Position numbers and translations under genes: made by a program
Notes under the pieces: model-generated
The model's database searches: none
What the model was told of the DNA's origin: nothing
Seen by the model: the letters and a program-made list of their open reading frames with translations, nothing else
In this document: positions 767-50,890 of the stretch, one piece after another
How positions within the stretch are numbered: the first letter of the stretch is position 1
Layout: every line of letters starts with the position of its first letter
From: an uncultured Planctomycetales bacterium
Lineage (GTDB): Bacteria > Planctomycetota > UBA1135
Length of the DNA stretch: 64,000 nucleotides
Assembly: GCA_964637165.1 (NCBI GenBank)
Contig: CAZWVI010000001.1
Location: 28,488 to 92,487 of the forward strand
Reading direction: 5' to 3'

Positions 767-777
767 TAAAAAAGTAA

Positions 778-3948: not shown

Positions 3949-3962
3949 CACTACCCCCCGCG

Positions 3963-8378: not shown

Positions 8379-8395
8379 TACAGCACAATCCCTTT

Positions 8396-14297: not shown

Positions 14298-14448
14298 GTT
14301 CTGTACTATTGTGGATGTACCTTAGCTTGGGAATCCTCGAGCGTTACCACCATCTTAATGGCATGTATTTTGCTAGACTTTCGGTTAGGCCCTACCCTTT
14401 CTCCCCTAAACTAATCCCGAACGGGTGGCCTGTAAATCGACTCCCAAG

Positions 14449-28894: not shown

Positions 28895-28941
28895 ATGAAT
28901 CAGACGTGGGCAAGAGTTGCTGATTACACTAAACTTTGCGC

Positions 28942-34845: not shown

Positions 34846-35565
34846 ATGTCCCTCCGCGCAATCTTCTTCGACATCGACGACACCCTGTTTTCCACCACGG
34901 CCTTTGCCGGGCATGCTCGTGAGCTTGCGGTGGATGCGATGATTGCACGTGGTCTCATGGCGAAGAAGGAGGAAGTCTTACCCGAATTGAAAAAGGTCGT
35001 TCTTGAATTTGGCTCTAATGACAATCGTCACTACAACCGACTCCTAGACCGGCTGCCAGAGTTTGCGACACGTGGTGTGAATAAGGCCCTCCTTGTTACC
35101 GCTGGAGTTATTGCTTACCACGAAGCCAAGTGGCGTGGCTTGCGGGTTCGCCCTGAGGCGCACGGACTTCTCGAAGATTTATCACGGACTGATATACGCC
35201 TTGGGGTTATTAGTGCTGGTTTGACTACGAAACAAATGGAGAAGGTTTTGCGTTTAGGACTAGATCGGTTTCTTGATCCAGGTTTACTATTTATTACTGA
35301 CCAAGTGGGAATTGCTAAGACAAATCCTGAACTTTATCGCACCGCGCTAAGTGCCGCTGAAGTGCAAGCAAGTCAGGCCATGCATGTCGGTGATCATCCG
35401 CTTCACGACATAGATTCTGCAGCGCTTGCCGGCATGGTCACAGTGTTGCATCGCGGCTCTGGTAAGCACGCTGAACTTAAGGGACAGCATCGGCCCGACT
35501 TTAACATTAATCGAATTGGTGAATTGCGCGGGATTTTAACCGACAATTTCGCCATCGATATCTAA
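34846..35565 (+). CDS. HAD-superfamily hydrolase (subfamily IA-like)
   Basis: Motif I FFDIDDTLF, motif II VISAG, motif III/IV K...HVGDHPLHDIDSA. Confidence 0.75.
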   Translation: MSLRAIFFDIDDTLFSTTAFAGHARELAVDAMIARGLMAKKEEVLPELKKVVLEFGSNDNRHYNRLLDRLPEFATRGVNKALLVTAGVIAYHEAKWRGLRVRPEAHGLLEDLSRTDIRLGVISAGLTTKQMEKVLRLGLDRFLDPGLLFITDQVGIAKTNPELYRTALSAAEVQASQAMHVGDHPLHDIDSAALAGMVTVLHRGSGKHAELKGQHRPDFNINRIGELRGILTDNFAIDI

Positions 35566-35587
35566 CGAAATAGCCAGTTAAAAAGAA

Positions 35588-35620
35588 AACTCCTGCGACT
35601 GACAAGCAGCCGCAGGAGTT
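35588..35620. terminator. Bidirectional intrinsic-terminator-like hairpin between convergent genes
   Basis: Inverted repeat AACTCCTGCG (35588-35597) / CGCAGGAGTT (35611-35620). An A-run lies upstream and a T-run downstream. On the minus strand the stem is followed by TTTTCTTTTT. Confidence 0.65.
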
Positions 35621-35640
35621 TTAAGGTTTAAGCTAAGTGC

Positions 35641-38295
35641 TTAGAGACGGTCATCAAGGTCATTTGCAACCTCAAGTGCATCAGTGATTTGTGCGCGGAT
35701 GATGATGATTACATCTTCCTTCTCGTTCGCTTCGCCTTCAGCTTTAAAGAGCATTGAAAGGAAAGGAATCTTGGCAAGGAAAGGTACCTCGGCACGTTGC
35801 TCAACATCAACAATCTTCTTAAGACCAGCAATTACAACTGAGCCACCATCAGGGATGACCGCAGTAGTGTTGGCGCTTGAAACACTTAACTCAGGGAGTT
35901 GCAGCGTAACCGGAGTGGTCAGGCCAGCAAGCGATGAGGTGAATTCAGGGATTGGACGCTTAAGTTGGGCTACGGTTGGGCGCAACTCAAGAGTGATGTA
36001 GCGACGGTCGTGACTGATGGTTGGACGCACATCAAGCACGATGCCATCAGAAACTACGCCAACTTGTGGGTCAGCGATCAAGGCAGCTTGAGCAACTTCA
36101 ACATCCATGTCCTGAACGTAAGTCACCTGGTTAACCACAGTGATGTAAGCGCGTTGAGTGTTGCGTGCTGAAACGGTGCTCGAGTTAAGTTCCTCGGCGC
36201 GGTTTGATTTTTCAACAGCGCGCAGAATCATTGACAACTGAGTGTCGTCAAGGAAAACAAACTGCATGGCCATTCCACCTGCATTTGATAGACGCGACCC
36301 GTAAGGACCGAGAATGTTTTCTGTGCGGGCGCGGATATCGCCATCGCCACCTTCGTTGTAGTAAGCACCGGCAGAAGGGTTGGCTTCAGCACCACTTGGT
36401 AGTCCAGAACCATCATTGTCTAAACCAAGTGAGGCGTTGTCCTCAAGACCTGAAGTTAGGTCGTCAAGGTTGGCCATGTCAGTTGGAGGGGAGAAGGTGC
36501 CGCCTAAGCCGCGGAAGTCAATCCCAACTTCTTGAAGGAAGTCTTTACGAACAGTTAAGAAGCGCGCTTCAATCGTAACCATTGAAGAGATGTAGCCCCG
36601 CATGTCTTGCAAGAACTCGTCAATCTCGCGCTGTACAGCTGGGGTGTGCCAAACAATTAGGTGACCGTTTGAGTAAGTTAAGGAAACTCCCTCAAGTTCT
36701 TCCCAAGTGTTCTTGGCAACGTTGGCCATAACCAAAGTCTCCAAGTTCATTGGGTCAAGAATCGGAACTGGCTCCCCAGTTACGCCACCTTGAATTGACT
36801 CTTCATCGTCTGAATCTTCATCAGGTAGGTGAATGTTGTCAATCTTTGGACCGCTGAAGTCCGTTAGGGTTGAAGTTAAATCTTGAACGTCATGCGCGCG
36901 CAAGATGAATTGACCTTGAGCGGACGAACGAGTGGTGATGTAAACAACACCATGCTTGAAGGTGTAAACAACTTCTGACCCGGCGGCATCGGTGATGACA
37001 CGCAGGGCGTTTTCAACGGTGATGGGGCGGTTTAGGTTTAAATCAAATTCAATTCCTTCTGAATCGACTGCCTCGACTGCATCCGGAGTGACCACAATTG
37101 GTGCATCGGTGTAGGGGCGAAGGCGATTAATTACTTCTTCAAGAGAAGGCTCAGCTTCAACTTGAAAGCCGGGGATTTTGGTCGAGGCAATCTCGGTAAT
37201 AATCGCTGCATTTTCTTCAGCAGTTTCAGGGTCACCACCGATTTCGCGGAAATGCTTGCGTGCTGCTGAAATCTCAGCCCAGTGGTCGAGATCTGGCATC
37301 GAAAGAATTTCGTTAGTTGGAATCATTGCCTCGGCAATGTCTTCTTGCCAACGCTTAAAGCGCTCATTGCGCTCTGTTAGAAAATCATCGTTTACCAACT
37401 CATGGCTGGCACGGTAGGTTGCATCACGCAGTTCCCGCGCGCGATCATTAAGCGGGTCTTCGCGCAGCAAATCTTCGCAAAGTTGCAAGGCCTCGTCATA
37501 GTTCTCTGAATCGAAAGAATCAATCGCAGTGTCAAGCATTAAAGCTAAACGTTGACTACGTTGTGCTGAACGAGCTTCTTCTTCAGCGCGCAATCGTTCC
37601 CAAGTCAATTGCTTTTCATTCTCGCGTTGGTTGGCCATCGCAGTATCGCGTTCAGCCTTCGCACGGTCAAGGGCAGCAGCAACGCGGCCGCTTAAACCAT
37701 TCCAGTCAATGTTGTAGCCAGTTCCCTCAATGCCGGCTTTAGCTAGGGATAGGGCCCCAACAGCTTCATCCAAATCTCCGTCTTCAAGTAGCTTGAAGCC
37801 GCGGTCAGCGTGAGCATGGATTTCTGCTTGCGCGCGTTGAATCCGCGCTTCCAAATTTAAACGTACATCGTCAATGGATCCAGTCAAGGGCACGCTTGCT
37901 CGGCCTAGTGCAACTTGGACTTGGTCAAAGAGTGAACGCACATCACGGTTTCCCGCGTCTAATTCCAAAGCAGCGATTAAAGAGTTTTCAGCTTCAAGTA
38001 GACGACCGTCAGCGAATGCTGAGCGGGCAGTATCTAAATGACCAGAAACAAGTAAAGCTGTCTTCTGCTCACGCAAATCTACATCTTTACGGCCTTGAAC
38101 AACAGGGTCTTGCACCATTGACCCAGGGTCAATGTTTGAGGTCTCGGAAACGACAGGCTGACTGGTGTTGTCGTTGTCGTTTACAACTACAGGGTTAGTG
38201 CAGGCAAAAAGGAGACCGGCCAGCAATGCAGGGCGGAGAACCGGGGACAGGGAGGCTTTCATTAACTTTTTGGGGGGCGGCTCGGAGTGAGCCAT
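35641..38295 (-). CDS. Secretin-family outer-membrane channel lipoprotein (884 aa) with a long TPR/coiled-coil N-terminal extension ('secretin A')
   Basis: Lipobox LLAGLLFAC. The N-terminal ~400 aa are helical and TPR-like. N0/N-domain-like segments are present (ITVENALRVITDAAG...VVYITT; NGHLIVWHTPAVQREIDEFLQDM). The secretin core shows GIDFRGLGG, FLDDTQLSMILRAVEKSNRAEELNSSTVSARNTQRAYI, IPDGGSVVIAGL and VPFLAKIPFLSMLFK. Confidence 0.9.
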   Translation of the reverse strand: MAHSEPPPKKLMKASLSPVLRPALLAGLLFACTNPVVVNDNDNTSQPVVSETSNIDPGSMVQDPVVQGRKDVDLREQKTALLVSGHLDTARSAFADGRLLEAENSLIAALELDAGNRDVRSLFDQVQVALGRASVPLTGSIDDVRLNLEARIQRAQAEIHAHADRGFKLLEDGDLDEAVGALSLAKAGIEGTGYNIDWNGLSGRVAAALDRAKAERDTAMANQRENEKQLTWERLRAEEEARSAQRSQRLALMLDTAIDSFDSENYDEALQLCEDLLREDPLNDRARELRDATYRASHELVNDDFLTERNERFKRWQEDIAEAMIPTNEILSMPDLDHWAEISAARKHFREIGGDPETAEENAAIITEIASTKIPGFQVEAEPSLEEVINRLRPYTDAPIVVTPDAVEAVDSEGIEFDLNLNRPITVENALRVITDAAGSEVVYTFKHGVVYITTRSSAQGQFILRAHDVQDLTSTLTDFSGPKIDNIHLPDEDSDDEESIQGGVTGEPVPILDPMNLETLVMANVAKNTWEELEGVSLTYSNGHLIVWHTPAVQREIDEFLQDMRGYISSMVTIEARFLTVRKDFLQEVGIDFRGLGGTFSPPTDMANLDDLTSGLEDNASLGLDNDGSGLPSGAEANPSAGAYYNEGGDGDIRARTENILGPYGSRLSNAGGMAMQFVFLDDTQLSMILRAVEKSNRAEELNSSTVSARNTQRAYITVVNQVTYVQDMDVEVAQAALIADPQVGVVSDGIVLDVRPTISHDRRYITLELRPTVAQLKRPIPEFTSSLAGLTTPVTLQLPELSVSSANTTAVIPDGGSVVIAGLKKIVDVEQRAEVPFLAKIPFLSMLFKAEGEANEKEDVIIIIRAQITDALEVANDLDDRL

Positions 38296-38315: not shown

Positions 38316-38825
38316 TTACTCCTCTTCGAAGGAGCCGGCAAAGGAAATCTTGGAGAAGCCCTTTGCAATTACAACATCGAGAATGCCAACGACGTCGCCG
38401 TAGACAACACCCTTGCGTGGGTCGATGGTGATGGGGGTGTCATCTTTCTGCTTTTGAGTTTTACTAAAGGCATTTAGGTGACGGTCAAGTCTCGCCAAAT
38501 CGGTGAACTTGGAGGAGCCGACTTCGAACTGAACGAGGCGTCCAACGTAGTGCTTGAGGCGACCTTGAGGTGATGAAGTTGTGCGAGTAGTTGGGTCAAG
38601 AACGAGTTGTCCTTTCTTTTTAACCTTAATGACAATGTCGACCTTTTCAATTTCGTCGGCAGTCGAGGCGCTAGTACCACGGTCCTTGGGCAGAGCAGCA
38701 TCGAGGCGCCCTTCAAGAACTTTGAACTTCAGCGTCACAATAAAGAAGATCAAGAGCAGGAAGGTGACGTCAATCATTGGCGCCATGTCCGGTTTTACTT
38801 CTTCAAACTTTTGAGGTTTACCCAT
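38316..38825 (-). CDS. exbD: ExbD/TolR-family protein (second copy)
   Basis: Shows PDMAPMIDVTFLLLIFFIV (conserved TM Asp) and a periplasmic domain ending PITIDPRKGVVYGDVVGILDV. Its ATG overlaps the upstream TAA (TAATG), with GGAGGAG upstream. Confidence 0.85.
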   Translation of the reverse strand: MGKPQKFEEVKPDMAPMIDVTFLLLIFFIVTLKFKVLEGRLDAALPKDRGTSASTADEIEKVDIVIKVKKKGQLVLDPTTRTTSSPQGRLKHYVGRLVQFEVGSSKFTDLARLDRHLNAFSKTQKQKDDTPITIDPRKGVVYGDVVGILDVVIAKGFSKISFAGSFEEE

Positions 38826-39355
38826 TACTTAACTCCTCCTACTTCCGGCTCAGAGGCAGCCAATTGAACTTTCCAAATGCGAATGCCTTCGCGGGTGCAG
38901 GTTTCCATGATTCGCGAGATGTACTTAAACTCGGTATTTCGGTCTGCACGAATCAAAATTGGATCATCAGGAAGCTTGCCCAAATTTGGATGTTCATCGT
39001 CAGCGACATGCTCCATCCGCTCAGCCCACTTCACCATTTCTTGGGCTAGCATCCAGTAGTAATCAGGTCGCCCTTTGCGGACAGGGTCGGTACGTCCACC
39101 AGAGTCAATGCCTGGCCAGTAGAGATCCTTCTTCTTATGAATGATGGTGCCGTCTGGCATTACGTTCAAAATCGGACGGCCTGGAGGAGGGTCGTCGTGG
39201 CCAGCTTCTACCGCGATTGGTAGTTTTAGGTCCTCGAGTTCCTGTTGAGTCAAGTCGTTAACAATGATGAAAAAGATGATCATCAAAAACGTAACGTCAA
39301 TCATGGGCGTCATGTCCATTTCGATGTCAGTGTCTGGTGTTCCTTTTTTACTCAT
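38825..39355 (-). CDS. exbD: ExbD/TolR-family protein (first copy)
   Basis: Shows MDMTPMIDVTFLMIIFFIIV, then a periplasmic domain (ILIRADRNTEFKYISRIMETC). Confidence 0.85.
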   Translation of the reverse strand: MSKKGTPDTDIEMDMTPMIDVTFLMIIFFIIVNDLTQQELEDLKLPIAVEAGHDDPPPGRPILNVMPDGTIIHKKKDLYWPGIDSGGRTDPVRKGRPDYYWMLAQEMVKWAERMEHVADDEHPNLGKLPDDPILIRADRNTEFKYISRIMETCTREGIRIWKVQLAASEPEVGGVK

Positions 39356-39387
39356 TTGTAACTCTGCTTAGGGTTAACGATTTTGCT

Positions 39388-40101
39388 TTACTCAGTCGGG
39401 CGGAAGCGGTCGAACATTTCTTCAACGATGGCACCAATCTCAAGCGAGAGCATGTTTACACGGTTACGGAAGAAAACGAAGAACGCAGTTACCGGAATCG
39501 CCACGGTTAGACCCAAAACGGTAGTAACCAGAGCCAATTGAATGTCACCGGCAAAATCTCGTGGTTCAACGGATGCGGACGATGCAATAACACCAAACGC
39601 ACCAACCATTCCAGTAACCGTACCGAACAAACCCATCATGGGCGAGATTCCAGCGATAAGTGAAAGGTAGCCAATCTTTTGGTGAAGCTTGACTGACTCT
39701 TCGTCTTCCATTTCTTCAACAGATTTTTCCAGAGCTGCGAAAGGGTAACCAATTCGGCGAACTCCAGCGGCCACGATGTTAGTGAACATGCATGGTTCTG
39801 TCTCGCAGTACTCAAGAACTTCTTGGTAATTACCAGCGTTCATAAGCTCCTCAACTTCGTCAATAATTTCTGGCGGCGCAAGTTTCTCGCGCTTGATGCT
39901 CATGAAGTGTTCAACGATGAGTGTTCCAGCAACAACTGAAATACCAATGATGATAAAACCAATGGTACCACCCTTAGAGATGGCGTCGAAGATTCCGACC
40001 TTGTTGGCAGCAGCTACAGGAGCGGCTTCTTGGGCAAAGGCGTATGAGGTTGTGAGGAACCAGCCGGAAAGTAGGCCGGCGAGTTGGTGAAGACGGGTCA
40101 T
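39388..40101 (-). CDS. exbB: MotA/TolQ/ExbB-family proton-channel protein
   Basis: N-terminal signal-like segment, then three TM helices with the family motif (LSLIAGISPMMGLFGTVTGMVGAF...LALVTTVLGLTVAIP). Confidence 0.9.
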   Translation of the reverse strand: MTRLHQLAGLLSGWFLTTSYAFAQEAAPVAAANKVGIFDAISKGGTIGFIIIGISVVAGTLIVEHFMSIKREKLAPPEIIDEVEELMNAGNYQEVLEYCETEPCMFTNIVAAGVRRIGYPFAALEKSVEEMEDEESVKLHQKIGYLSLIAGISPMMGLFGTVTGMVGAFGVIASSASVEPRDFAGDIQLALVTTVLGLTVAIPVTAFFVFFRNRVNMLSLEIGAIVEEMFDRFRPTE

Positions 40102-40205
40102 TTTGACTACGGGACCGAGTTTAGGGGGGGAGCTTCTAGCCTGAGTGGGTAGAAGGGGTTGAACAGGTGCTTGATTCTAACTGAGTTGTAAGGCTTTGCT
40201 CAAAC

Positions 40206-41279
40206 TTAGCCATCAAGCATTGCGCGGGCTTTAACCGCCCAACTAGTAGAAGAGTAGTCATCTACTAGGCGTTGGTAATAAGACTTCGCAGAAGTTGGGG
40301 TATTTTCCAGCTCTGCACAAGTCTCGGCCAGCTCAAAAAGTGCTCTTGCACTAACTTCTTGGCTAGCTGGCATTGTCGCAACCACTTGCGCTAAAAGAAG
40401 TTGCGCGTCGCGTAAGGCTCCTGACTGGCGCGCCGCACGAGCCGCTCCAACAGTAGCCGCTGCGCGAACATCTAGGCTGGAATTACGATCTCGACCGAGG
40501 TTTTCCCAGTAAGAGCGCGCTTTTGCTACTCCATCTTTTGCTTCAATGGAATCGCCAAGGAGGATTTGCCCACGGCTATGTAGTTTGCGGAGGCGGGTGC
40601 GGAGCGCATTTGAGCTATCTCCGGACTTCAGCGCGTCAGCTATCTTCGGCACTAAGTCGCGTAGGCGAGCTTCGGCAACAGTTGCTTGTTTGCCTATAAG
40701 GAATACCTCGCAACGACCGAGCCTAGCACCGAATTCAATGTGGTTTGGCAGGGTCTTTTCAAACGCGAATGCGGCCAATTTCTCAAAAAGCTTGGCAGCT
40801 GAATCGGTATCACCAGCGGCGGCAGTGGCCATGGCTTGACCGGTTTGAGCTCGTGCTGAGAACCAACTATCTGGGTTGGCAGCTAGCCAGGTAGCAAAGG
40901 CTTTTTGAGCTTCGCTAGCTTTGCCTCCATCAATTTGCGACCAGGCGAGAAGCGTTTCAGCATTAAGCAAGCCTGCCAAGGTAGAGGTTAGGCCATCACT
41001 GGATGCTGCGATCGAGCTAAATGTCCCAGTAGCGTTTTGATAGTCAAAGTCAGCTAGGTATCGGTTTCCAGCACTTAAAGCGGAATTTACCGCAACTAGA
41101 TCCAAATCAAGAATTTGCGAACTTTTGAGCGACTTCGACTTGCCGCGACCATCTTTCCAGGTAACTTTTGAGACCGTGGCGGTTTCAATTGTTCCGTCGG
41201 TAACTGTTCCATCAAGCTGAATGATTGCATCTTGGGCGAATGCGGGAACGGCAAGTAGTAGGGCGCAGAGAGCAGGCAT
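40206..41279 (-). CDS. Secreted TPR-like repeat protein (~357 aa)
   Basis: The ATG at 41279 gives an immediate signal peptide (MPALCALLLAVPAFAQDA), 2 nt after the upstream stop. The rest is Ala/Leu-rich helical repeats. No Pro-rich spacer or TonB C-terminal domain was recognised. Confidence 0.7.
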   Translation of the reverse strand: MPALCALLLAVPAFAQDAIIQLDGTVTDGTIETATVSKVTWKDGRGKSKSLKSSQILDLDLVAVNSALSAGNRYLADFDYQNATGTFSSIAASSDGLTSTLAGLLNAETLLAWSQIDGGKASEAQKAFATWLAANPDSWFSARAQTGQAMATAAAGDTDSAAKLFEKLAAFAFEKTLPNHIEFGARLGRCEVFLIGKQATVAEARLRDLVPKIADALKSGDSSNALRTRLRKLHSRGQILLGDSIEAKDGVAKARSYWENLGRDRNSSLDVRAAATVGAARAARQSGALRDAQLLLAQVVATMPASQEVSARALFELAETCAELENTPTSAKSYYQRLVDDYSSTSWAVKARAMLDG

Positions 41280-41281
41280 GA

Positions 41282-44167
41282 TTATTGACGGTTCTTGAGC
41301 CATTTAAGAATGTTTGCTAGGTCAGCGCCGGCTGCTTCCTCCCCGAGGTCGGGGGCTAAGCGCTCAATGCTACTGATTAGGTTCGTGTGACGACCAGCAA
41401 AAGTGGTGTCCGAAGTAGACCGCTTGTAAAGCAAGTATGCGTATTGCATACGAGCTTGCCAATAAGGGGCGTGTTCGAATTTGCTAACGTTATTATCATT
41501 AGCGTCCTTTTCGGCTAGTTGGGTAAGGGTAGTAATTAGGGTTGTGGCCTTCTCGTAACTTTCAAGTCCACCGATTCCTTCAACTTCAACAACACGGCCT
41601 TCGCGAATAACTGGCCAGCCAACCAAAACCTTTGCGGCGGCATTAATCACTCGCAAGTTGTTGGGTTTCTTGTCCAGCAGTTCGTCAATGATTGGACCCG
41701 CTTGAGCAGTGTTAAATTGCATCAGGTAAGCATCGACCAAATCTAATTGAGCAAAGAAGCGATTGCTACTTGAGAAGGATTTGTCATCAGCAAAGTTGAC
41801 AATGATTTTTTCTAGAAGAGTAGTGGCTGCAGCTGGTTGCTGAATGTCTAAACGAAGGCGAGCTTCCTTAAGAAGGTTCTGCCAAGCTACTTTGCCGGCG
41901 CGGTTATTTGCTACTCCTAGGTAGTCAGTCGCAGTGGTTAGCAAACCGAGTTTCACTTTTTCGTCAGTCTCACTGTCAGCGCGTTTACTCCAAAAACCGA
42001 ACATGTAGTGGGCAGCTTGCGAAATACGCGAGTCTGGATATCCACCGCTAAGTAGTGATTCGTAGGCGCTAGTGGCGGCCGCATCGTCACCCAAGGCTAA
42101 GTGTGCTTCAAGCATCGAGACAATTGCCGCTGCTGCGTAACTGCGTTGCTCAGGATAGCGATCAGGGAATCCAGAGTATGAGTCAAGAACGCCTTGCCAA
42201 TGAATATCTTGACCGGCTTTAGCTTGTTTGTATCGTGTTTGGCCACGATAGAAATCTGCTTGAGATGTTGCGTCTTTTCTGGTCTTACGTCCGCGTGCGT
42301 CCTGAGGAGTGTTGTCAGGATTTTGCGTGAAAACTTCTAAGTAGTCATTGAAAATGCGGAAGGCTTCATCGCCAGCGCTGGCTTGCCAGGCAAGTTTGCG
42401 AAATTCGCACATGCCAATTTGCACCATGGCATTTTCAAAATAGCGACTTCCACGTTCAATTTTTTGGTAACTTGCAATGGAAGTGTTTAAGGCTTTTAGT
42501 GCTGCAGTAACTTCAGTGGATCCCTTTGCCTTACCGCGTGCTGCTCGGCCTTTATCTTTAGCCAAGCTGTAGTCTGATTGAGCTGCGTTCCAGATTGCTT
42601 GGTCTGGTGCGCCGCCGGTACTGGAAGCCGAGACTGCCGCAATCGAATCTTTAAAAAATCGATCAAGAGCGGCGTCGCCAGGGTTGGAGCTGCGGAATTT
42701 GTCGGCTAGCTTCATCCAAGCCTCAGCATTCTTAGCAGCGAACTCCTCGTCATCTGGGAAAAGTTCAAATCCTAATTGGTGACTAACAGCAGCTTCTAAA
42801 TCTTGTTCTAGGTAGGAGTAAGAACGGGCAAGGTAGTAGTAGGTGGCCGCGCCGAATTCGTCTGTTTGGCGACTTTTTCCTAAGCGGGTTAGGAGTAATA
42901 AAAACCCATCGCGTGCTTTGGCAAACTCTTTTTGAAAGTAAGCACCCTCAGCTGCAGAGTAAGCAACCCCGAGGTCAATTTTGGCATCTTCTGGGGCCGC
43001 GGCAATTGCTAGACCCATTACCTCGTTTGCATCGAGGCGCAGGCGGCTGGTTTCATTTTCACGAGCAACCAATTCGGCAACGGCGATCGCTTCAGCAAAA
43101 TTTCCGCTGCGCACTTGATTGCGTGCTACTAATAACAAAACCCGGTAGCCACTTTGGGAGAGGAATACACCCTCGTCATCAACCCATTGACGGAAAGTTT
43201 CGCCCAAGGTTACCGCATCTGCGGCGCGTCCCCATTTGGGGTAAAGCTTCATCATGCCTAAGTAGGCATCTTGTTGAACTTCGCGGCGGCCATCTACTTC
43301 AGCATCGGCCATTTCGTGGCCTTCTGGCACGGAGTTTTCAATGACGTGAAGATAGAAGGCTTCAGACTCTTCGAAAGTCATGTCGGCATCTTCGTTTTTG
43401 CCACGCGCCAATTCGGCTTCAGCGCGCAAAACATAAGTGTCGGCCATTTGTTTGTAGGCCATGAATCCAGGACGCGAGGAATCGCCAGCTAGCAAGGCGA
43501 AGTCCTCAAATAACTCTAAGCATTTTTGGGAACGTTCCAGGCGTTCAATGGTGCTTGGGTCGTAGGCAGCCGCCCAGAAGTAGAATATTTGGGCTTTAAA
43601 GTATTTCGCCGGAAAGTAAGCGGTGTAACGCAGAGAATCTTTCTCGTCGCCACTGGCCATGCTTTCCCATTGGCTAATAATTTTATCTAGTCCATCTTTA
43701 GCGGCTAGGAATAAGGTGTTGGCCTTTTCCGTTAGGGCGCTGCGCTCCTCCGAACCAACCGGGAGATTGACAATTTCAATCTGTAAGGCGGAGCCGTATT
43801 GAAAAGCTAATTCCCCAAGTGCTACTTGGGCGTTGGTGGCTAGTCGCGCCGGCGGCGAGTCCGCCAAGAAATCGGCGTAGGCACTTGCCGCTGCATTGAG
43901 CGCTTCAAGCTTTTGCTCGGGGTTAGCGCGGCGCGCAGTAGCTTTGCGAACGTCACAGCGAGCGAGCAACAACTCACTACGTCCAGCACCGCTAGCATTT
44001 TTCAATGCCTTGGATAGGACCTCCTCGGCCATTTCGTCAAAGCCAAGTTCAGTGGTCAAAGCGCGCGCGAAGTTAGCTTCGCGGCGGAGATGGAGATCGC
44101 CGGCCGGCTCCTGGAGGGGAGCTGGTAGGCAGAAGAGAAGCGTAGCCGTGGCTAGCATGCCTAGCAT
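41282..44167 (-). CDS. Large secreted TPR/helical-repeat protein (961 aa)
   Basis: N-terminal hydrophobic signal (MLGMLATATLLFCLPAP). The whole length consists of TPR-like A/Y/L-rich helical pairs. No enzymatic motif recognised. Confidence 0.75.
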   Translation of the reverse strand: MLGMLATATLLFCLPAPLQEPAGDLHLRREANFARALTTELGFDEMAEEVLSKALKNASGAGRSELLLARCDVRKATARRANPEQKLEALNAAASAYADFLADSPPARLATNAQVALGELAFQYGSALQIEIVNLPVGSEERSALTEKANTLFLAAKDGLDKIISQWESMASGDEKDSLRYTAYFPAKYFKAQIFYFWAAAYDPSTIERLERSQKCLELFEDFALLAGDSSRPGFMAYKQMADTYVLRAEAELARGKNEDADMTFEESEAFYLHVIENSVPEGHEMADAEVDGRREVQQDAYLGMMKLYPKWGRAADAVTLGETFRQWVDDEGVFLSQSGYRVLLLVARNQVRSGNFAEAIAVAELVARENETSRLRLDANEVMGLAIAAAPEDAKIDLGVAYSAAEGAYFQKEFAKARDGFLLLLTRLGKSRQTDEFGAATYYYLARSYSYLEQDLEAAVSHQLGFELFPDDEEFAAKNAEAWMKLADKFRSSNPGDAALDRFFKDSIAAVSASSTGGAPDQAIWNAAQSDYSLAKDKGRAARGKAKGSTEVTAALKALNTSIASYQKIERGSRYFENAMVQIGMCEFRKLAWQASAGDEAFRIFNDYLEVFTQNPDNTPQDARGRKTRKDATSQADFYRGQTRYKQAKAGQDIHWQGVLDSYSGFPDRYPEQRSYAAAAIVSMLEAHLALGDDAAATSAYESLLSGGYPDSRISQAAHYMFGFWSKRADSETDEKVKLGLLTTATDYLGVANNRAGKVAWQNLLKEARLRLDIQQPAAATTLLEKIIVNFADDKSFSSSNRFFAQLDLVDAYLMQFNTAQAGPIIDELLDKKPNNLRVINAAAKVLVGWPVIREGRVVEVEGIGGLESYEKATTLITTLTQLAEKDANDNNVSKFEHAPYWQARMQYAYLLYKRSTSDTTFAGRHTNLISSIERLAPDLGEEAAGADLANILKWLKNRQ

Positions 44168-44206: not shown

Positions 44207-44235
44207 GTCGGCCGAGGCTTAAATCCTCGGCCGAC
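44207..44235 (-). terminator. Strong hairpin between secretin B and the TPR genes (terminator/attenuator or RNA-stability element)
   Basis: Perfect 11-bp inverted repeat GTCGGCCGAGG (44207-44217) / CCTCGGCCGAC (44225-44235) with a 7-nt loop. It lies 10 nt downstream of the secretin B stop on the minus strand and is followed there by TTCAGTTT. Confidence 0.4.
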
Positions 44236-44244
44236 ATTTAGCAA

Positions 44245-46890
44245 CTACTGGGCAGAGCCCGGTGTAGCTGATGGTTCGAATTCTTCAGGCACGATAATCC
44301 GTGCGGATAGAAGAATGATCAGTTTCTGGTAGGACTCGTACTCGCCTTTCCGTGAAAAGAAGAAGGAGAGAATTGGAATCCGGTTAAGAATTGGGATGCC
44401 TGATTCTAGGTTTTGTTGATTAATCACTTTCATTCCACCAAGTAGCAAGGTGCCACCGTCTGGAATCATCACGCTGGTTGAAATCTTTTGCAGTTCCAAC
44501 TCTGGCAATTGCATTGTTACAGGTGAACCAGTTCCAAGTGATGTTTGGAATGAAGGGATTGGTCGAACTAGAGTCGCAACAGTTGGGCGAACATCAACGT
44601 AAGTGAAACGGCGGTCAGCTGAGACTACCGGTCGCACGTCGAGATACACACCGTCGCGGGCAACCCGAACAATCGGGTCAGCAATCGCCGCAGCTTGGGC
44701 GATTTCAACGTCAAAGTCACCAACGTATGAAACTTGGTTGGCAACTGTAAGGGTCGCACGTTGAGTATTTGAAACAGTAAGAGTTGATTCAGTTAGAACT
44801 TCACGTCGCTCAGACTTTTCAACTGCGCGCAACACCATGTTGAGTTGGGTGTCATCAAGGAATGTGTACTGCAAGCTTAAACCGCCAGAGCCCACCAAGC
44901 CTTCTTCGCTACCTAAACCTGAATCGTACAGGTGCTCAGTGCGTGAGATGATGTTGACGTTATCGCCAGCTTCACGGAAGTACATTCCTGAATCATTGCC
45001 AGTACCCAAGGTGCCAGGGGCGCCAGGTGAGCCTGGGTCAGTTCCGAAATCGTCGAAGACAAAATCATCTCCTTTACCAGAGATTCCAGATGTTGAATCA
45101 TCGCCAAGTCCGCGGAAGTCAACTCCAATGTCTTGCAAGAATGAATCTTCAACTTTTAAGAAGCGAACTTTGATGTCCACCATAATGTTTGAAGACTTGC
45201 GCAAATCTTCCAAGAGGCTCTTGATTCTTTCTTGGGTTGAAGGCGGCGCGTTAACAATCAACGTACCATTTTCAATTGCGACAGTTGCAGTGTCGTCCCA
45301 TGAGTCAGGCTCAATGTTCTCTTGGATGGCAGCCAGCAAATCATCCTCAGTAAGAACTTTTGCTTCGCGTTCAGGCAATTCTTCTTCAACTAATTCAATG
45401 CCACCAGAAGGGGCAAGGTTTACATCAGTTCCGACAAAGTCTTTAATTGGCCGAACAATGTCACGTACTTCAAACTTGTTGAGAATGTTGCCGCCGACTG
45501 ATTCTTCAGAACTCATTACATTGACCACGCCATTACGAATAACAAAACGCAATTGACCTTGGGTCATGTCTTCGATGATGGAAAGGATTTGCGAGACTGG
45601 CATCGCACGAGTGAAGGCCAAGTTAATAGTCTTTACATCTTCGTCCATGTCTTCACGTACAGCCCGCGAAACTACAAAGTTGACTCGAGTGTAGGCGGCT
45701 AAGTTGTCAGCAATTTCTTCAATTGTGTTTTCAAAGCGCGCTTCAATTCGAGTTGCGTCCAGTAGATTTTGGATTGCTGCTTCACTTGGGTCGGCCCCAG
45801 TTGCTGAAACCATCTTGTCTAGTGATTCTCGCTTAAGCACTGTGTTGCGCCAGTAATCGATGTCATGCTCGATAATGTTCTTTGGCGGCACAGCCATGGT
45901 GCGCAATTCATCAAAAGTAGCTTTCCATTGCTGACGGAAAGATGTGTCAGTTTCACGTTGACGGTTAGCGTGCCAAGCAGCGTTAGCTACTTCACGTAAG
46001 CCCAGTGCGTCTTGGTTGCGTGGATCCAATTCAAGTAAGGCGTCAAGCACCTTGACTGAATCGTTGTAATGACCTTGTGTGAACTTTTGGTTTGCGTCTT
46101 GGAATAAAGTTCGTACTCGGTTGCTTAAGTAGTTCTCGCGTGCGTCACGAGTCGCTTGTGCTTCTTGTTTGGCAGCAGCGGCTTCGGCTGAGCGTTGCGC
46201 GGTGAAGTAATCACTGCGCGCTTGGCTGGCTTCACTTAATTTTGATGCAACTAAGTTGTAGTCCAATGAACCGGCGGCCAAACTTGGTGAGGTGCGAAGA
46301 GCCATCTCAGCAGCTTGGTAAGAGCTCACGGCTGAATCAAAGTCGCCAGTCGCCATGGATGAATCGCCATCTTTGATTAGGCCTTCAACATGGATACGAC
46401 GATTCGCGCGGCGCAGCTGAGCTTGGGTGATGCGGTCTTCGGCTGAATCTACATCCCATGCACCACCAGCAAGCTGTTGTTCGCAACGACGTAAGCCATC
46501 GCGGCCATCACGGCTGTTCGGGTCAAGGTCGAGGGCATCGGCGTAAAGCATCGCGGCACCTTTGTAGTCTCCACGTTGGAACGCTTCATCGGCCTGGGCA
46601 ATAAACTGTCCACTTAGTAGACGAGCTTTTGCCTGATGGCGGTCAAGTTGGGCGCGCTCGTCAGAAACCGGCGCTTGAGGCGCAGGGTCTTGAACAGCAA
46701 CAGGTGTTGGGGCTGCGGGCGCAGCAGTGGGTGTGACCTCTACAGACGGCTCGGCTGGAGCTTCGGCAGATTCTTCGCTATCGGCCCAAGAGCCGAAATC
46801 GTCGAGAAACCACTCCTCGTCATTAGACTGGCAAGAAGCCAGAACGAGGGCGGGGAGCATGAACAGGGGGAACCGGTATTTGCGCATCAA
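44245..46890 (-). CDS. Secretin-family outer-membrane channel lipoprotein (881 aa), full-length paralog of secretin A ('secretin B')
   Basis: Lipobox LPALVLASC. TPR-like N-terminal region (FQRGDYKGAAMLYADALDLDPNS). N-domain-like segments are present (NGVVNVMSSE; NGTLIVNAPPSTQERIKSLLEDL). The secretin core shows GVDFRGLGD, FLDDTQLNMVLRAVEKSERREVL, IPDGGTLLLGGM and IPILNRIPILSFFFS. Confidence 0.9.
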   Translation of the reverse strand: MMRKYRFPLFMLPALVLASCQSNDEEWFLDDFGSWADSEESAEAPAEPSVEVTPTAAPAAPTPVAVQDPAPQAPVSDERAQLDRHQAKARLLSGQFIAQADEAFQRGDYKGAAMLYADALDLDPNSRDGRDGLRRCEQQLAGGAWDVDSAEDRITQAQLRRANRRIHVEGLIKDGDSSMATGDFDSAVSSYQAAEMALRTSPSLAAGSLDYNLVASKLSEASQARSDYFTAQRSAEAAAAKQEAQATRDARENYLSNRVRTLFQDANQKFTQGHYNDSVKVLDALLELDPRNQDALGLREVANAAWHANRQRETDTSFRQQWKATFDELRTMAVPPKNIIEHDIDYWRNTVLKRESLDKMVSATGADPSEAAIQNLLDATRIEARFENTIEEIADNLAAYTRVNFVVSRAVREDMDEDVKTINLAFTRAMPVSQILSIIEDMTQGQLRFVIRNGVVNVMSSEESVGGNILNKFEVRDIVRPIKDFVGTDVNLAPSGGIELVEEELPEREAKVLTEDDLLAAIQENIEPDSWDDTATVAIENGTLIVNAPPSTQERIKSLLEDLRKSSNIMVDIKVRFLKVEDSFLQDIGVDFRGLGDDSTSGISGKGDDFVFDDFGTDPGSPGAPGTLGTGNDSGMYFREAGDNVNIISRTEHLYDSGLGSEEGLVGSGGLSLQYTFLDDTQLNMVLRAVEKSERREVLTESTLTVSNTQRATLTVANQVSYVGDFDVEIAQAAAIADPIVRVARDGVYLDVRPVVSADRRFTYVDVRPTVATLVRPIPSFQTSLGTGSPVTMQLPELELQKISTSVMIPDGGTLLLGGMKVINQQNLESGIPILNRIPILSFFFSRKGEYESYQKLIILLSARIIVPEEFEPSATPGSAQ

Positions 46891-46968: not shown

Positions 46969-47895
46969 TTACTCGAGACTTAGAGGTAGTAGTAGTTCTA
47001 GGTCGAGAGCAGTTCCACAAGGATCCGTAAGACGCATGCTTGCAAGCAAGCGAGACTGGTCCAACGAGCGGGTACGCTCGGCTGGACGCCCCTCGATTAT
47101 GACCCTGCGGCCCAATGCGTCAAAGCGAGGAATACTAGTTTGTACGGAGATGGTGGTATCACGGACATTCAAACCTTCTAAAACCCACTCAGTATTTCCA
47201 ATAGGAGCGCCTGGCCAGGCCTTGAAAGGACCTAATTGTGGCCGTCCTGGCCGATTCAGGAAAAGCATAATTGAGCCATCTTCAGTGAGACCTTCAGTTG
47301 TCCAATTCGTCCGCCTTGGCATGGTCGCGGTGGCCGCAACTGGCGCGGATTCAGCACGTACCTGAGAACCGTCAAGAACGCTACTCGGGCGGTTCAATAT
47401 AGTTCTTAGCCTATATCTGTAAGGTGTTCCCTCACAGTCGATTACGTCAAAATATTCATTCTTTTTTGTGCTTCCGAGCGGGGTCGCTGAACCGTCTCCA
47501 GCCCATCTCGTCAGCTTGTATTCAAGGCCATTGATGGGGTTGCGTATATCAGCAACCCAGGTAAGGCTGATTCCACCTGTTTGAGGCGAAGCGGTGAAGT
47601 CAATAGGCGGGTAAACCTGTGAAATGTCATCAAGGTCGGCGGTGTTGGACGAGGATGTTGTGGTGAAAACGCCAAATGTTTTTCTGCTAGGACGAACTTT
47701 GCGGCCACTTTTTTTAATGAATTTAGAAAAATTTTGGCTGGCGGCAAAAATTTGCTCTGAACTTACGACTCCACTTGGTGAATCAGAGTTTGTGGCCGGC
47801 GCTACTGCGGTTGGAGTTGGCAGGAAAGTAAGAACGGCAAATAGCAGGAGCGAAATCGCTGCGGTCACAATCGCCAGAAATCTATTGACCGACAT
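46969..47895 (-). CDS. Bitopic membrane protein with a possible FN3-like periplasmic domain, in the position of PilP/GspC upstream of the secretin
   Basis: N-terminal TM helix (FLAIVTAAISLLLFAVLTFL), an S/T-rich linker, then a beta-rich region (GGISLTWVADIRNPINGLEYKLTRW...YRYRLRTI). The functional role is inferred from position only. Confidence 0.5.
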   Translation of the reverse strand: MSVNRFLAIVTAAISLLLFAVLTFLPTPTAVAPATNSDSPSGVVSSEQIFAASQNFSKFIKKSGRKVRPSRKTFGVFTTTSSSNTADLDDISQVYPPIDFTASPQTGGISLTWVADIRNPINGLEYKLTRWAGDGSATPLGSTKKNEYFDVIDCEGTPYRYRLRTILNRPSSVLDGSQVRAESAPVAATATMPRRTNWTTEGLTEDGSIMLFLNRPGRPQLGPFKAWPGAPIGNTEWVLEGLNVRDTTISVQTSIPRFDALGRRVIIEGRPAERTRSLDQSRLLASMRLTDPCGTALDLELLLPLSLE

Positions 47896-48448
47896 TGTTC
47901 AAAATTTGTTTTACGCTAAACACTCTCATGGTGAAATCTAATTCAAGACCATCTCCGTTTTCGCTGATAGAAATATGGACGGGATCGCTTAAATAACCAA
48001 GGCGTTCAGGCATTTCAAGTAAGTGGAAGCAAAACGGAAGTAGGCTTGCGCTGCTGCCAGAAGCATTTAACTTAAGTTCGATGCATGAAAGTGATGCAAG
48101 ATGTTTGATTGACAAGCCATTTGCGTGCCCATCTCGACCAAGTCCAAGCTCGGTCCATCGTTCTAACTCAAGTCGCGCTAATTGACCAAGAAAGGGAGTC
48201 GCTAGTGATTCACTGCCGGCTAAATCGCTAAGACCCCAATCGCTTAAGCGCGTTTTAATTTGACTAACACTTGCCGCTGACGCAGCTTTGCCTAAAGTCG
48301 GCAAATACCAATCGTGATATTCCTCGATTGCCGGCGTCGAAGTCTTTTGTGAAGTTACAGTTTGTGGCAATGAAGTTGAACGATGCCACCACTGCTGGGC
48401 AAGAGCAATGTTGAATCCAATTAGGAGTGAGCAGAATATGTATTTCAA
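47882..48448 (-). CDS. Small bitopic membrane protein (188 aa), PilO/GspM-like by position and topology
   Basis: Single N-terminal TM (IFCSLLIGFNIALA) plus a ~160-aa periplasmic part. ATGA start/stop overlap with the upstream gene. No sequence motif recognised. Confidence 0.45.
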   Translation of the reverse strand: MKYIFCSLLIGFNIALAQQWWHRSTSLPQTVTSQKTSTPAIEEYHDWYLPTLGKAASAASVSQIKTRLSDWGLSDLAGSESLATPFLGQLARLELERWTELGLGRDGHANGLSIKHLASLSCIELKLNASGSSASLLPFCFHLLEMPERLGYLSDPVHISISENGDGLELDFTMRVFSVKQILNNVGQ

Positions 48449-49521
48449 AATTTATTCCGCTGATTGCTAACCCGACCGATTAAAACTCGGGGATCATGTT
48501 GACTTGAATTAAGTTTCATCGTCTCGATTAAATCAGTGTACTTAATTTTGTCGTTATCGCTGCGTGTTAGGCGTAAATGCACTTCACGGCTGGCGATGCC
48601 CGAGGATAATTCGATGTGGCTTAATGATTGAGCAGGTGCATGCTTTAGGATTTCGTCGAGGGCATCAATAGTTGCCATCCGCCTTTCGAGTAAACGGTCG
48701 ATTTCGAGTGGTAATTCGCCTAAACGGCGCAATCTGGGCATTTCGTCAGCAACTTGAGTTGAGCTTTCTTGCTCAGTTGTAAGAAGTGATTTTTGTTGGG
48801 TTTGATTAATCCAAAAGTTGAAAAGACTAAAGCTTGTTGCCAGCAAAACGCTCGCTAACCAAATCCGGTCAAGCGAAGATTTTTTAACTGGAGTTAGCGC
48901 TCCGTGTCGGGTTGGATTTTGCGCAAAAATAGCGGCACCTAAGGCTGCACGATTGGCTCCGTGTTCTTGCGGCGTGCTTTCAATTCTGATAGCTTTATAT
49001 TTCTTGGCAACACTTTCGAAAAGTAATTCTTGGCCACCAGCATTGGGCTCGGTTGCAATAACAATAGTGTTGATCGTGTGTGGGATACTTCGACATATTT
49101 TTGCAAAAACTTGATCAATCGACCCGTCGCGACTTTCGCGGCAATGAAAACTATCGCCGGGTGTTGCGGCACTGCAGTGAAGTGCATCATCGCTTAACCA
49201 GAGGTGTAAGTCGTTGTCGGTGAAACGGCCACATTCCCAATCCCAGCTTGCGGCTGCGACCGCCGGATGAACTAGACAGCTTGGGTGCGGACGTATTAAT
49301 GGCCAACGTTTTGGAAGTTGGCTTGGCCGGTGATTACCATCACAAATGCTGACTCCCCAGTTCAAGTGATGTCCAGCGCATAAACTTTTATAAAGTTGAG
49401 TTAGGTTTTTTAAGTTGGATTGGCCAGCTGAAATAACGCTTGGTGCTTGTTGCGGCAAACACTCGAGTAATGCCCAATCAACTTGAGTGCCGTTTAAGTG
49501 GAATCCTAATGACTTAACCAT
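48445..49521 (-). CDS. GspL / PilM-PilN-fusion-like bitopic protein (cytoplasmic domain, one TM helix, periplasmic domain)
   Basis: A ~215-aa N-terminal soluble domain, one TM helix (IWLASVLLATSFSLFNFWI), then a coiled coil and a ~100-aa C-terminal domain. This topology matches assembly-platform proteins of T2SS/T4P. Assignment is by architecture and synteny, not a motif match. Confidence 0.45.
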   Translation of the reverse strand: MVKSLGFHLNGTQVDWALLECLPQQAPSVISAGQSNLKNLTQLYKSLCAGHHLNWGVSICDGNHRPSQLPKRWPLIRPHPSCLVHPAVAAASWDWECGRFTDNDLHLWLSDDALHCSAATPGDSFHCRESRDGSIDQVFAKICRSIPHTINTIVIATEPNAGGQELLFESVAKKYKAIRIESTPQEHGANRAALGAAIFAQNPTRHGALTPVKKSSLDRIWLASVLLATSFSLFNFWINQTQQKSLLTTEQESSTQVADEMPRLRRLGELPLEIDRLLERRMATIDALDEILKHAPAQSLSHIELSSGIASREVHLRLTRSDNDKIKYTDLIETMKLNSSQHDPRVLIGRVSNQRNKF

Positions 49522-50167
49522 TAGTTTTCGGTAGGGCGTGGATACCTAAAAAACGCATCGCCACTTGCAAATCCTGCCAGCTGGCAGCTTTGAGTGCGGG
49601 CTGTTCGACAAGTTGCAGTGGGTGATAACTGGCAATTATTGGAATGTTAGAATCCTGCATACGCTGTAGTTGTCCGCGCGCATCTTCCAAATTTGTCACA
49701 TTGGGAACCAGGGCTTTGATTGACTGCTCGCCCATAGCGATTATTAATTTGGGGTTGGCAGCCAGTAATAATTGTTGAAATGGTGAAGCGTCACCGTCCA
49801 TCCAGCAGGCGAAAACGGTGGCACGGGGCAATTTCATGCCGCTTTCAAGCATTTTGGCAAGAAGTTCACCTGACTCACCGGAATAAATATTTTGACCTCG
49901 GCCGTTGTTGTCAGGCGCATCAAGGATCAAGAATAGTTGCGCATTGGGGTCGCCCTCACCATTTAAAGTGGCTATTTCTGCAGTTGGAACCGAGGAATCG
50001 GCAATTGGTGGCTTGGCGCGAGGGCTATCTTGGATAAAATCACCGAGCCCAATTTGCTCCAATTCTTCCAGCAACAGGGCGCAGGCGGCCCGTTGTAGCT
50101 GGTCGGGAGGAGGGGGGTGACTCATGTTCTGTATTGTGGCGTATTTCTGAAGGGACTCAAGCCACAA
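49514..50167 (-). CDS. Uracil-DNA glycosylase-superfamily protein (family-4-like, degenerate catalytic motif)
   Basis: Shows LFLILDAPDNNGRGQNIYSGESGELLAKML (the family-4 pattern is GEAPG..E...G.PF.G.AG.LL) and a C-terminal ASYHPL motif. No Fe-S cysteine cluster. Its 3' end overlaps the next gene by 8 nt. Confidence 0.5.
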   Translation of the reverse strand: MWLESLQKYATIQNMSHPPPPDQLQRAACALLLEELEQIGLGDFIQDSPRAKPPIADSSVPTAEIATLNGEGDPNAQLFLILDAPDNNGRGQNIYSGESGELLAKMLESGMKLPRATVFACWMDGDASPFQQLLLAANPKLIIAMGEQSIKALVPNVTNLEDARGQLQRMQDSNIPIIASYHPLQLVEQPALKAASWQDLQVAMRFLGIHALPKTNG

Positions 50168-50221
50168 TTGGGTTTGCGTTAAAGCGTGGAATTTCGTAAA
50201 CTTGCGCGGCTAAGATTCGGC

Positions 50222-50890
50222 ATGGCACCTAAAAAACCTGAGCTCCTAGAGCTACTTCGACAAAGTAGCAAAGATAGTGGAAATACCGCTTCGGGGTCAA
50301 GTTCTACACCAGAACCTGCGAATCCAGTTCACTCACAACCCGAAACCCCTTCCGAGCCGATTCGCTTAGCACCGCGCCGTCCCGCTCGCCGCCCAACTTG
50401 GTTGCCGGCCGCTGGTATTTTGGTGGTCGTAGTGCCAGTTTTGTGGATACTTGCCAGCTGGGCCTTTGGCGATAGTGAAGTTCTGAACGCTTCCGAAGAG
50501 CCAAAGACTGAAACCCCCGCTGACCCCATTTCAGTTGAAAAAGATGCTGAAGCGACTACAGAACCCCCGGCTACATCACCGCCGGTCGCTGTTAGCAAAT
50601 CTTTTGGCGTTAAGGTAATCACTTACGATTCCAACGACAAAAACATGCAGTATGCAAAAACTGTAGGCAAGGCATTGAAAGCAAATGGTTTGCCAAATGT
50701 GCAATTGCTGCAAATGCCTGGTAAGAAGGGATCCTTTCTTGAAGTCTTTGTCGGCAAAGCTGATAGCATTCAAGATCTTGCCAAACTACGTGGAAGAATC
50801 CGAGCCTACGAGTACCCCGTTGGCAGTGGGCAAAAACCATTTGCGTCCGCAGGTATTTTTGCACTTCCATCGACCACCTCCAATAATTGA
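50222..50890 (+). CDS. Bitopic membrane protein with a C-terminal SPOR-like domain
   Basis: The ATG at 50222 (MAPKKPELLE) is preferred. A disordered P/S-rich N-terminus is followed by a TM helix (WLPAAGILVVVVPVLWILASWAF). The C-terminal ~75 aa (FGVKVITYDSNDKNMQYAKTVGKALKANGL...LEVFVGKADSIQDLAKL) look SPOR-like. Confidence 0.45.
   Translation: MAPKKPELLELLRQSSKDSGNTASGSSSTPEPANPVHSQPETPSEPIRLAPRRPARRPTWLPAAGILVVVVPVLWILASWAFGDSEVLNASEEPKTETPADPISVEKDAEATTEPPATSPPVAVSKSFGVKVITYDSNDKNMQYAKTVGKALKANGLPNVQLLQMPGKKGSFLEVFVGKADSIQDLAKLRGRIRAYEYPVGSGQKPFASAGIFALPSTTSNN

Follow-up and report, generated by a model that had tools for sequence, protein, structure and literature searches.

Outer-membrane processes powered by the proton-motive force (PMF) are thought to need a transducer of the TonB or TolA type, and secretins are viewed as gated pores that play a passive part and are served by inner-membrane machines running on ATP. 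The closest described systems to the locus considered here are clusters in species of the Planctomycetota-Verrucomicrobiota-Chlamydiota (PVC) group that are without TonB and TolA. These clusters consist of a small tetratricopeptide repeat (TPR) gene, tolQ, two tolR genes and an inner-membrane transducer bearing the von Willebrand factor A (vWA) domain, and no function has been assigned to them (PMC12204202, Mol Biol Evol 2025). Most Planctomycetota are without TonB systems (PMC3422733), and their polymer import route is unknown (PMC11131199). The present analysis concerns a 64,000-nucleotide stretch of contig CAZWVI010000001.1 from an uncultured Planctomycetales bacterium (hereafter the window), which carries on its minus strand one ExbB, two ExbDs (ExbD1 and ExbD2) and two TPR proteins (large, TPRL, and small, TPRS) enclosed between two secretins. 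This cluster is real and conserved, and apparently previously undescribed. Its genomic context suggests that the seven proteins form one PMF-driven envelope-spanning apparatus in which the secretins take the place of a TonB, TolA or vWA protein as output; this reading is held tentatively, at somewhat less than an even chance. An earlier sequence-only reading of the five central genes is supported in part, having missed the two flanking secretins and overlooked the PVC vWA clusters.

The motor and the two flanking secretins

According to the open reading frame (ORF) listing and Pfam, the gene order on the minus strand is UDG-like gene, 358-aa, 188-aa and 308-aa genes, secretin 1, TPRL, TPRS, ExbB, ExbD1, ExbD2 and secretin 2; the five genes and coordinates given earlier for 38316-44167 are correct. 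The features of the locus are as follows.

49514-50167, minus strand: UDG-like gene (UDG superfamily; ORF listing and Pfam)
48445-49521, 47882-48448 and 46969-47895, minus strand: membrane-anchored proteins of 358, 188 and 308 aa, respectively, without a family
44245-46890, minus strand: secretin 1, lipoprotein of 881 aa (PF00263, E 4e-22, and N-terminal TPR matches)
44207-44235, minus strand: GC-rich hairpin of 11 bp (9 GC) followed by a weak T tail; it lies in the 77 nt that separate secretin 1 from TPRL
41282-44167, minus strand: TPRL, large periplasmic TPR/alpha-solenoid protein of 961 aa that has a signal peptide and is free of Cys
40206-41303, minus strand: TPRS, small periplasmic TPR protein of 365 aa (357 aa from an alternative start)
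39388-40101, minus strand: ExbB/TolQ-family channel protein of 237 aa (PF01618, E 7e-24)
38825-39355, minus strand: ExbD1 (ExbD/TolR paralogue 1), 176 aa; its periplasmic domain is enlarged (PF02472, E 6e-16)
38316-38825, minus strand: ExbD2 (ExbD/TolR paralogue 2), 169 aa (PF02472, E 9e-21)
35641-38295, minus strand: secretin 2, lipoprotein of 884 aa (873 aa from the next ATG; PF00263, E 2e-24)
35586-35622, minus strand: terminator-like hairpin, a 16 bp stem followed by a T run, directly 3' of secretin 2
34846-35565, plus strand: HAD hydrolase, at the opposite edge of the block

The two secretins are full-length paralogues, 32% identical across 860 residues, and both have the C-terminal secretin domain PF00263 (79 and 86 bits, cut-off 27.5). 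Their common architecture consists of a lipobox, an acidic/Pro-rich tether, about 350 residues of helical/TPR sequence and the secretin core. The lipobox, L-A-[AG/S]-C, is kept in all orthologues, and in both proteins the tether spans 40-70 acidic/Pro-rich residues after the lipobox Cys (window 46600-46830 and 38100-38200, minus strand). Most orthologues, not all, have a Q-[DE]-P motif in the tether, usually 15-25 residues ahead of a conserved (R/E)EQK helix; it is missing from two of the related loci surveyed below (L020 and L021), and it may be due to chance because the tether is a low-complexity sequence. As for named subfamilies, both secretins remain under all curated NCBIfam cut-offs, with 97 and 110 bits for MshL (cut-off 250), 75 and 69 for PilQ (284), 62 and 69 for GspD (351), and 96 and 75 for Amuc_1098_fam (750).

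ExbB has the MotA_ExbB domain PF01618 (84.4 bits against a cut-off of 22.9), and ExbD1 and ExbD2 match PF02472 at 59 and 75 bits, respectively. The sequence-only reading had described one ExbB and two ExbDs that retain the transmembrane (TM) Asp in PMIDVTF, which is confirmed by the alignments: the motif occurs in both ExbDs, and its Asp (D20 in ExbD1, D19 in ExbD2) aligns with D25 of the E. coli and S. marcescens ExbD and is invariant across orthologues. ExbB T161 and T194 are also invariant in orthologues. According to the ungapped offsets of PDB matches, they correspond to ExbB T148/T181 and TolQ T145/T178, the established essential pore Thr residues of the ring in TM2/TM3 of the channel subunit. 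In addition, ExbB has a conserved cleavable N-terminal signal sequence with an invariant F-A-Q. The two ExbDs are non-identical, both have enlarged periplasmic domains, and ExbD1 has orthologues in all loci; duplication of ExbD2 in L020 and L021 results in three ExbDs. On a 7.06-Mb Planctomycetota contig (L027, 11115-13219), the ExbDs reach 242 and 411 aa via long periplasmic insertions, which is consistent with the periplasmic parts being functionally important, variable connectors.

The best NCBIfam matches of the motor proteins are TolQ and TolR, well under the curated cut-offs, and all equivalog cut-offs for TolQ, ExbB, TolR and ExbD are missed by a wide margin. ExbB shows near-equal weak scores against TolQ and ExbB structures (39 and 36 bits, respectively). 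These values, and the TonB-like gene that follows exbD in the positive controls described below, agree with the earlier statement that the motor is neither a canonical TonB nor a canonical Tol motor.

Both TPR proteins have cleavable signal peptides. AlphaFold2, run on shallower alignments without orthologues from related loci, gives a model of TPRL with a pLDDT of 88.9, in which about 40 helices and one hairpin form an otherwise all-helical solenoid, and a model of TPRS with a pLDDT of 87.8, in which a six-strand beta domain (residues 26-68) precedes 13 TPR-type helices. Thus, of the earlier description as two signal-peptide-bearing, all-helical TPR proteins, the signal peptides stand, as does TPRL except for one hairpin, and 'all-helical' is only approximate for TPRS because of its N-terminal beta domain. 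A Foldseek search against the PDB with both models yields generic TPR scaffolds only (LGN/Pins, NprR, Ski3, Ctr9 and IFT-A) and nothing specific to CpoB, PilF/PilW, BamD or Glt. Among the matches, at ranks 21-50, is the flagellar-motor TPR scaffold of C. jejuni (9hmf). In that motor, TPR proteins scaffold the 5:2 stators (PDB 9hmf).

TPRL matches no Pfam or NCBIfam family. A profile search over 1.84 billion representatives (50% clustering) defines a family of 451 relatives, 175 of them at E <= 1e-30, nearly all about 930-1020 aa long. Its homologues, some of them 100% identical, derive from metagenomes of marine and other origin, and the named ones are metagenome-assembled genomes (MAGs) of Planctomycetota. 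In the local hidden Markov model (HMM) scan of the recovered loci, TPRL profile matches are confined to secretin-linked loci. The TPRS profile also matches the TPR gene adjoining ExbB in vWA-type and other motor loci; among the vWA-type loci, the values are E <= 1e-5 for L067, L084 and L108, and 8e-6 for L063. Against the CpoB/YbgF model TIGR02795, TPRS scores 37.3 bits with a cut-off of 90.1, the match covers the C-terminal TPRs only (E 3.5e-9), and the modelled N-terminus is a beta domain, not a coiled coil as in CpoB/YbgF. Because its score is so far under the cut-off, TPRS is not a CpoB orthologue, an identity that the earlier reading had singled out as telling against its own interpretation.

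According to the intergenic distances, the genes are tightly packed. The UDG-like gene and the beginning of the first operon gene share 8 nt, the ExbD2 start overlaps the ExbD1 stop by 1 nt, and ExbD2 is separated from secretin 2 by 20 nt in which there is no terminator-like site. The remaining intergenic gaps do not exceed 105 nt. Since gaps in the operon are merely 20-105 bp, there is no space for an additional gene inside it. The sole strong downstream terminator-like hairpin is that at 35586-35622, after secretin 2, which is probably the end of the transcription unit. The hairpin at 44207-44235 could be an attenuator or an RNA-processing/stability element splitting the operon.

Conservation of the block and the search for a transducer

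A scan of GTDB species genomes with the ExbB alignment found nine Planctomycetota MAG species, and the order secretin 1, TPRL, TPRS, ExbB, ExbD1, ExbD2, secretin 2 occurs in 9/9 of them where the contig is long enough. The block is also kept on further contigs, including the 7.06-Mb contig (GCA_016719295.1; ExbB 50% identical) and metagenome contigs; GCA_008501825.1 and the 338-kb JGI contig Ga0118726_1000003 are further carriers. Across the relatives of the block, identity drops to about 40% for ExbB and to 22-25% for TPRL, and a metagenome scan with the ExbD2 alignment gives a graded series down to 25% identity. The loci were annotated by tblastn and local HMMs (secretin, TPRL, TPRS, ExbB, ExbD and a vWA-transducer profile), with the following census.

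Motor with secretin(s), without vWA protein: 28 loci
Motor with an inner-membrane vWA protein (S-x3-H helix; Pfam VWA_3/VWA_2), without secretin: 9 loci
Motor with both secretin and vWA protein: 0 loci
Motor with neither: 21 loci, many truncated or canonical-type

Among the 28 secretin-linked loci are L001, from the organism of the window itself, and a small number of redundant contigs; the named organisms are Planctomycetota MAGs. Co-occurrence of the seven genes is strict, within a monophyletic motor set, and the vWA transducer and the secretins are mutually exclusive in the sampled loci. In a crude neighbour-joining tree of ExbB without support values, all secretin-linked motors form one clade, the vWA-linked motors are adjacent, and the TonB/TolA-type motors are far off.

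Two divergent loci show which parts of the block persist. L065 (ExbB 42% identical) consists of secretin, ExbB, ExbD, ExbD, secretin and HAD; TPRL and TPRS are both absent, and secretin-motor adjacency is thus the most persistent feature. Upstream, this locus has PilM (PF11104, E 1e-15) and two bitopic proteins, one with an FN3 match. L071 consists of secretin, a 1133-aa TPR protein, a 503-aa TPR protein, ExbB, ExbD and ExbD. As for the edges, almost all related loci have the UDG and HAD genes as limits of the conserved block, also where the outer flanks differ, as they do in L027, L029 and L030, in which the HAD gene is co-directional with secretin 2. No functional link of these edge genes to the block is evident.

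The 358-, 188- and 308-aa upstream genes are restricted to the closest subclade and do not occur in L011, L016, L017 and L020. They occupy the position of a pilM/N/O/P-like set, an analogy of position and topology only. None of the three proteins was matched to PilM/N, PilO, PilP or GspL/M/C by Pfam (E <= 1) or PDB profiles, the hhalign comparison with the bona fide PilMN/O/P set of the Omnitrophota locus L023 was negative, and their profiles do not match the PilM-containing locus L065.

The precomputed Pfam annotation of all called genes in the 64 kb holds no TonB_C, TolA, TolB, vWA, Plug or TonB_dep_Rec domain, and neither the cluster nor the window encodes a TonB_C or FHA protein. Neither the operon, the 64 kb nor the related loci have a TonB protein as defined by an S-x3-H TM helix, a Pro-rich spacer and TonB_C, and a TonB, TolA or vWA protein is present in none of the 28 secretin-linked loci. 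A profile built from four vWA transducers finds these proteins in about 10 other loci, and none in the window or the 28 loci. Where a gene is inserted between ExbD2 and secretin 2 of orthologous loci, it encodes a pyridoxal phosphate (PLP)-dependent decarboxylase (PF00282; L010 15952-17616, L016 11946-13460 and L018 3881-5455), not a transducer. The earlier claim that the locus has no TonB/TolA-like gene is thus upheld for the operon and, by Pfam and the ORF scan, for the whole 64 kb.

The closest non-planctomycetal relatives of ExbB served as positive controls. A TonB_C gene directly follows exbD in L022 (Bacteroidota MAG), and a 210-aa protein with an S-x3-H helix directly follows it in L023 (Omnitrophota MAG).

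A scan for Pro-rich windows in all ORFs of at least 90 aa in the window found two. The one at 44837-45556 runs antisense within secretin 1 and is an artefact; the second is the following gene.

50186-50890, plus strand: bitopic protein of 234 aa, divergently transcribed, Pro-rich, outside 38316-44167

The absence of a Pro-rich spacer protein from the locus, as claimed previously, holds accordingly, the only real Pro-rich ORF lying outside the span. Its product has a cytoplasmic N-terminus with a conserved MA(R/P)RK-ELLDLLR motif; a single TM helix and a linker rich in Pro, Glu and Gly lead to an alpha/beta C-terminal domain of about 95 aa. It is kept beside the cluster in many loci. This topology is TolA/TonB/FtsN-like. 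As a TonB, TolA or SPOR protein it was rejected, with no Pfam, PDB or hhalign match and a TM helix without His. The only OmpA-domain lipoprotein of the window (9410-10102, plus strand; coiled-coil N-terminus) is 28 kb from the cluster.

Weighing the readings

If the seven proteins do form one apparatus, an ExbB pentamer would surround an ExbD1/ExbD2 heterodimer, and this 5:2 motor would turn proton flow into movement. The movement would travel to the outer membrane by way of the ExbDs, with their enlarged periplasmic domains, and the TPR scaffolds, which together would replace the inner-membrane TonB, TolA or vWA transducer, and would be passed to the N-terminal helical/TPR regions of both secretin rings. 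Gating, assembly or substrate passage of the secretin channel(s) would thereby be energised, with the direction (import or export) and the substrate left unspecified. An ExbBD-type motor conserved together with secretins and without a transducer would be a new output class of the 5:2 motor family and a candidate for energised outer-membrane traffic in Planctomycetota.

Several observations weigh against this reading. Its support is gene context throughout, and adjacency within a lineage is no proof of shared function because the UDG-like and HAD edges are equally conserved. L071 is without secretin 2 and has a thioredoxin and a polysaccharide-lyase-like protein at that place, and in several genomes the PLP-dependent decarboxylase separates ExbD2 from secretin 2. 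The ExbB tree is crude, the folds of TPRL and TPRS resemble generic scaffolds only, and a TonB, TolA or vWA transducer elsewhere in the genome is possible.

A bolder version of the single-apparatus reading is unlikely. It would be the first case of a 5:2 proton motor acting directly on secretin channels without TonB, TolA or vWA, in which the ExbD pair and the TPR solenoids bridge the enlarged planctomycetal periplasm and the PMF opens or drives a double-secretin portal for macromolecule uptake or export. The double-secretin portal could belong to the unexplained polysaccharide import route or to the outer-membrane complexes of this phylum.

The main rival, itself rather unlikely, is that the motor energises in the ordinary way, through a transducer (TonB, TolA-like or PVC vWA) encoded elsewhere in the genome; it would serve TonB-dependent receptors or another output, and the secretin flanks would be inherited synteny. 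Genes for TonB are often unlinked from exbBD, and a decarboxylase can sit before secretin 2. This rival stays alive because the UDG and HAD genes at the edges, which have no obvious envelope role, are as conserved as the rest and because the negative searches cover the 64 kb and the related loci, not the whole genome. However, no transducer was found within 64 kb, and the sister clusters keep vWA adjacent, yet 0/28 secretin-linked loci carry one. Secretin linkage also outlasts both the changes in the outer flanks and the loss of the TPR genes.

A Tol-Pal-like system for envelope maintenance or division is improbable. According to this explanation, ExbB and the ExbDs would act as TolQ and TolR, TPRS would be a CpoB analogue, and the 50186-50890 product would be a TolA/FtsN-like partner. 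The TolQ/TolR best matches in NCBIfam and the YbgF match of the TPRS C-terminus (E 3.5e-9) point in this direction, as do the retention of the bitopic protein beside the block and a dcw division cluster 4 kb further along. Nevertheless, every Tol match is far under its curated cut-off, the window has no TolA or TolB domain and no Pal adjoins the cluster, the bitopic protein has neither the TM His nor a TonB_C, TolA or SPOR match, and the two secretins and the 961-aa TPR protein are left unexplained.

Finally, a relative of the Agl-Glt/Nfs core (AglR, AglQ/S, GltD and GltE) that moves periplasmic or surface cargo for gliding or surface-coat transport is very improbable: composition and order do match (large TPR, smaller TPR, one TolQ-like and two TolR-like proteins; PMC3169522), but the core always has GltG (TonB_C) and GltC, neither of which is present here, and the nearest relatives found are the PVC vWA-type clusters.

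Several neighbouring genes of the window touch on possible secretin substrates. Large predicted lipoproteins without a Pfam family (226+, 1056, 1191 and 1015 aa) are encoded on the plus strand at 86-7520 and 14425-17472; at least two of them share the C-terminal tail F-Q-[VI]-R-[LM]-T-F...DGLG-[IF]-AW. They adjoin the gene for a prepilin peptidase, and may be surface proteins or cargo of the secretins. The prepilin peptidase (A24; 8258-9382, plus strand), like the OmpA-domain lipoprotein and a pilin-like ORF, is encoded about 25-30 kb from the cluster; this ORF, at 12065-12640 (plus strand), has a GFTLSE motif with an N_methyl score of 19.8 bits, just below the cut-off. Type IV pilin machinery is thus present in this genome. 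A ComEC/Competence-domain protein (734-758 aa; 26690-28966, minus strand) is encoded beside a Mg-chelatase/ComM-like ATPase; it hints at a capacity for DNA uptake, which bears on the possible secretin substrate.

Comparison with known systems

A full-text literature search found no paper with an ExbBD module (proton motor) embedded between secretins. In comparison with the ExbB-ExbD-TonB and TolQ-TolR-TolA systems, the cluster shares PF01618, PF02472, the ExbD TM Asp and the two ExbB pore Thr. It differs in having two non-identical ExbDs, and there is no transducer, TonB-dependent receptor, TolB or CpoB in the window.

The Agl-Glt core comprises the signal-peptide TPR proteins GltD (1191 aa) and GltE (471 aa) with AglR and AglQ/S (PMC3169522). 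It also includes GltC and GltG (FHA plus TonB_C), has no secretin, and has been reported from Proteobacteria and Fibrobacter, not from PVC (PMC3169522). The resemblance to Agl-Glt/Nfs proposed by the sequence-only reading holds for composition, with one TolQ-like protein, two TolR-like proteins and a large and a small signal-peptide TPR gene side by side. It fails at the core, where GltG and GltC are missing from the window and secretins replace the beta-barrel proteins GltA/B/H, and the phylum is another one. The likeness is one of composition only, and the cluster counts neither as a TonB or Tol-Pal system nor demonstrably as an Agl-Glt one.

As for the secretin modules of type IV pili (T4P), mannose-sensitive haemagglutinin (MSHA) pili and type II secretion systems (T2SS), the cluster shares with them the secretin domain and the small bitopic proteins upstream of secretin 1. 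Further likenesses to T4P are the true PilM at the position upstream of the secretin in L065 and the prepilin peptidase and pilin-like ORF in the same window; to MSHA, a TPR protein after the secretin, as MshN. In contrast to these modules, the cluster has two paralogous secretins and no ATPase or platform gene. In Pseudomonas and Acinetobacter, type IV pilus function or transformation depends on a TonB paralogue (PMC8811193), and therefore a PMF transducer can serve a secretin-based machine, by an unknown mechanism. The Omnitrophota locus L023 (7451-19883) is an independent juxtaposition of a TPR-ExbBD module and a secretin system, there with a transducer: an 831-aa TPR protein, ExbB, ExbD and a TonB-like protein (S-x3-H) are encoded directly upstream of a complete T4P operon on the same strand (pseudopilin, PilM/N, PilO-like, PilP-like, PilQ, PilB and PilC).

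The closest correspondence is with the PVC vWA clusters, and the vWA loci recovered here match their published description (PMC12204202). Both have one ExbB/TolQ-like protein, two different ExbD/TolR-like proteins and a TPR protein of about 350 aa encoded directly upstream, and the vWA-linked motors are the nearest outgroups of the window motor in the ExbB tree. The vWA protein with its S-x3-H (SHLS-type) TM helix belongs to the PVC clusters and is found neither in the window nor in the 28 secretin-linked loci, whereas the two flanking lipoprotein secretins and the 961-aa TPR solenoid of the window are absent from the vWA loci. The two sets form a natural comparison group, and the cluster is best filed as a variant of PMF-driven 5:2-motor envelope systems, sister to the PVC vWA clusters and marked by its secretin pair.

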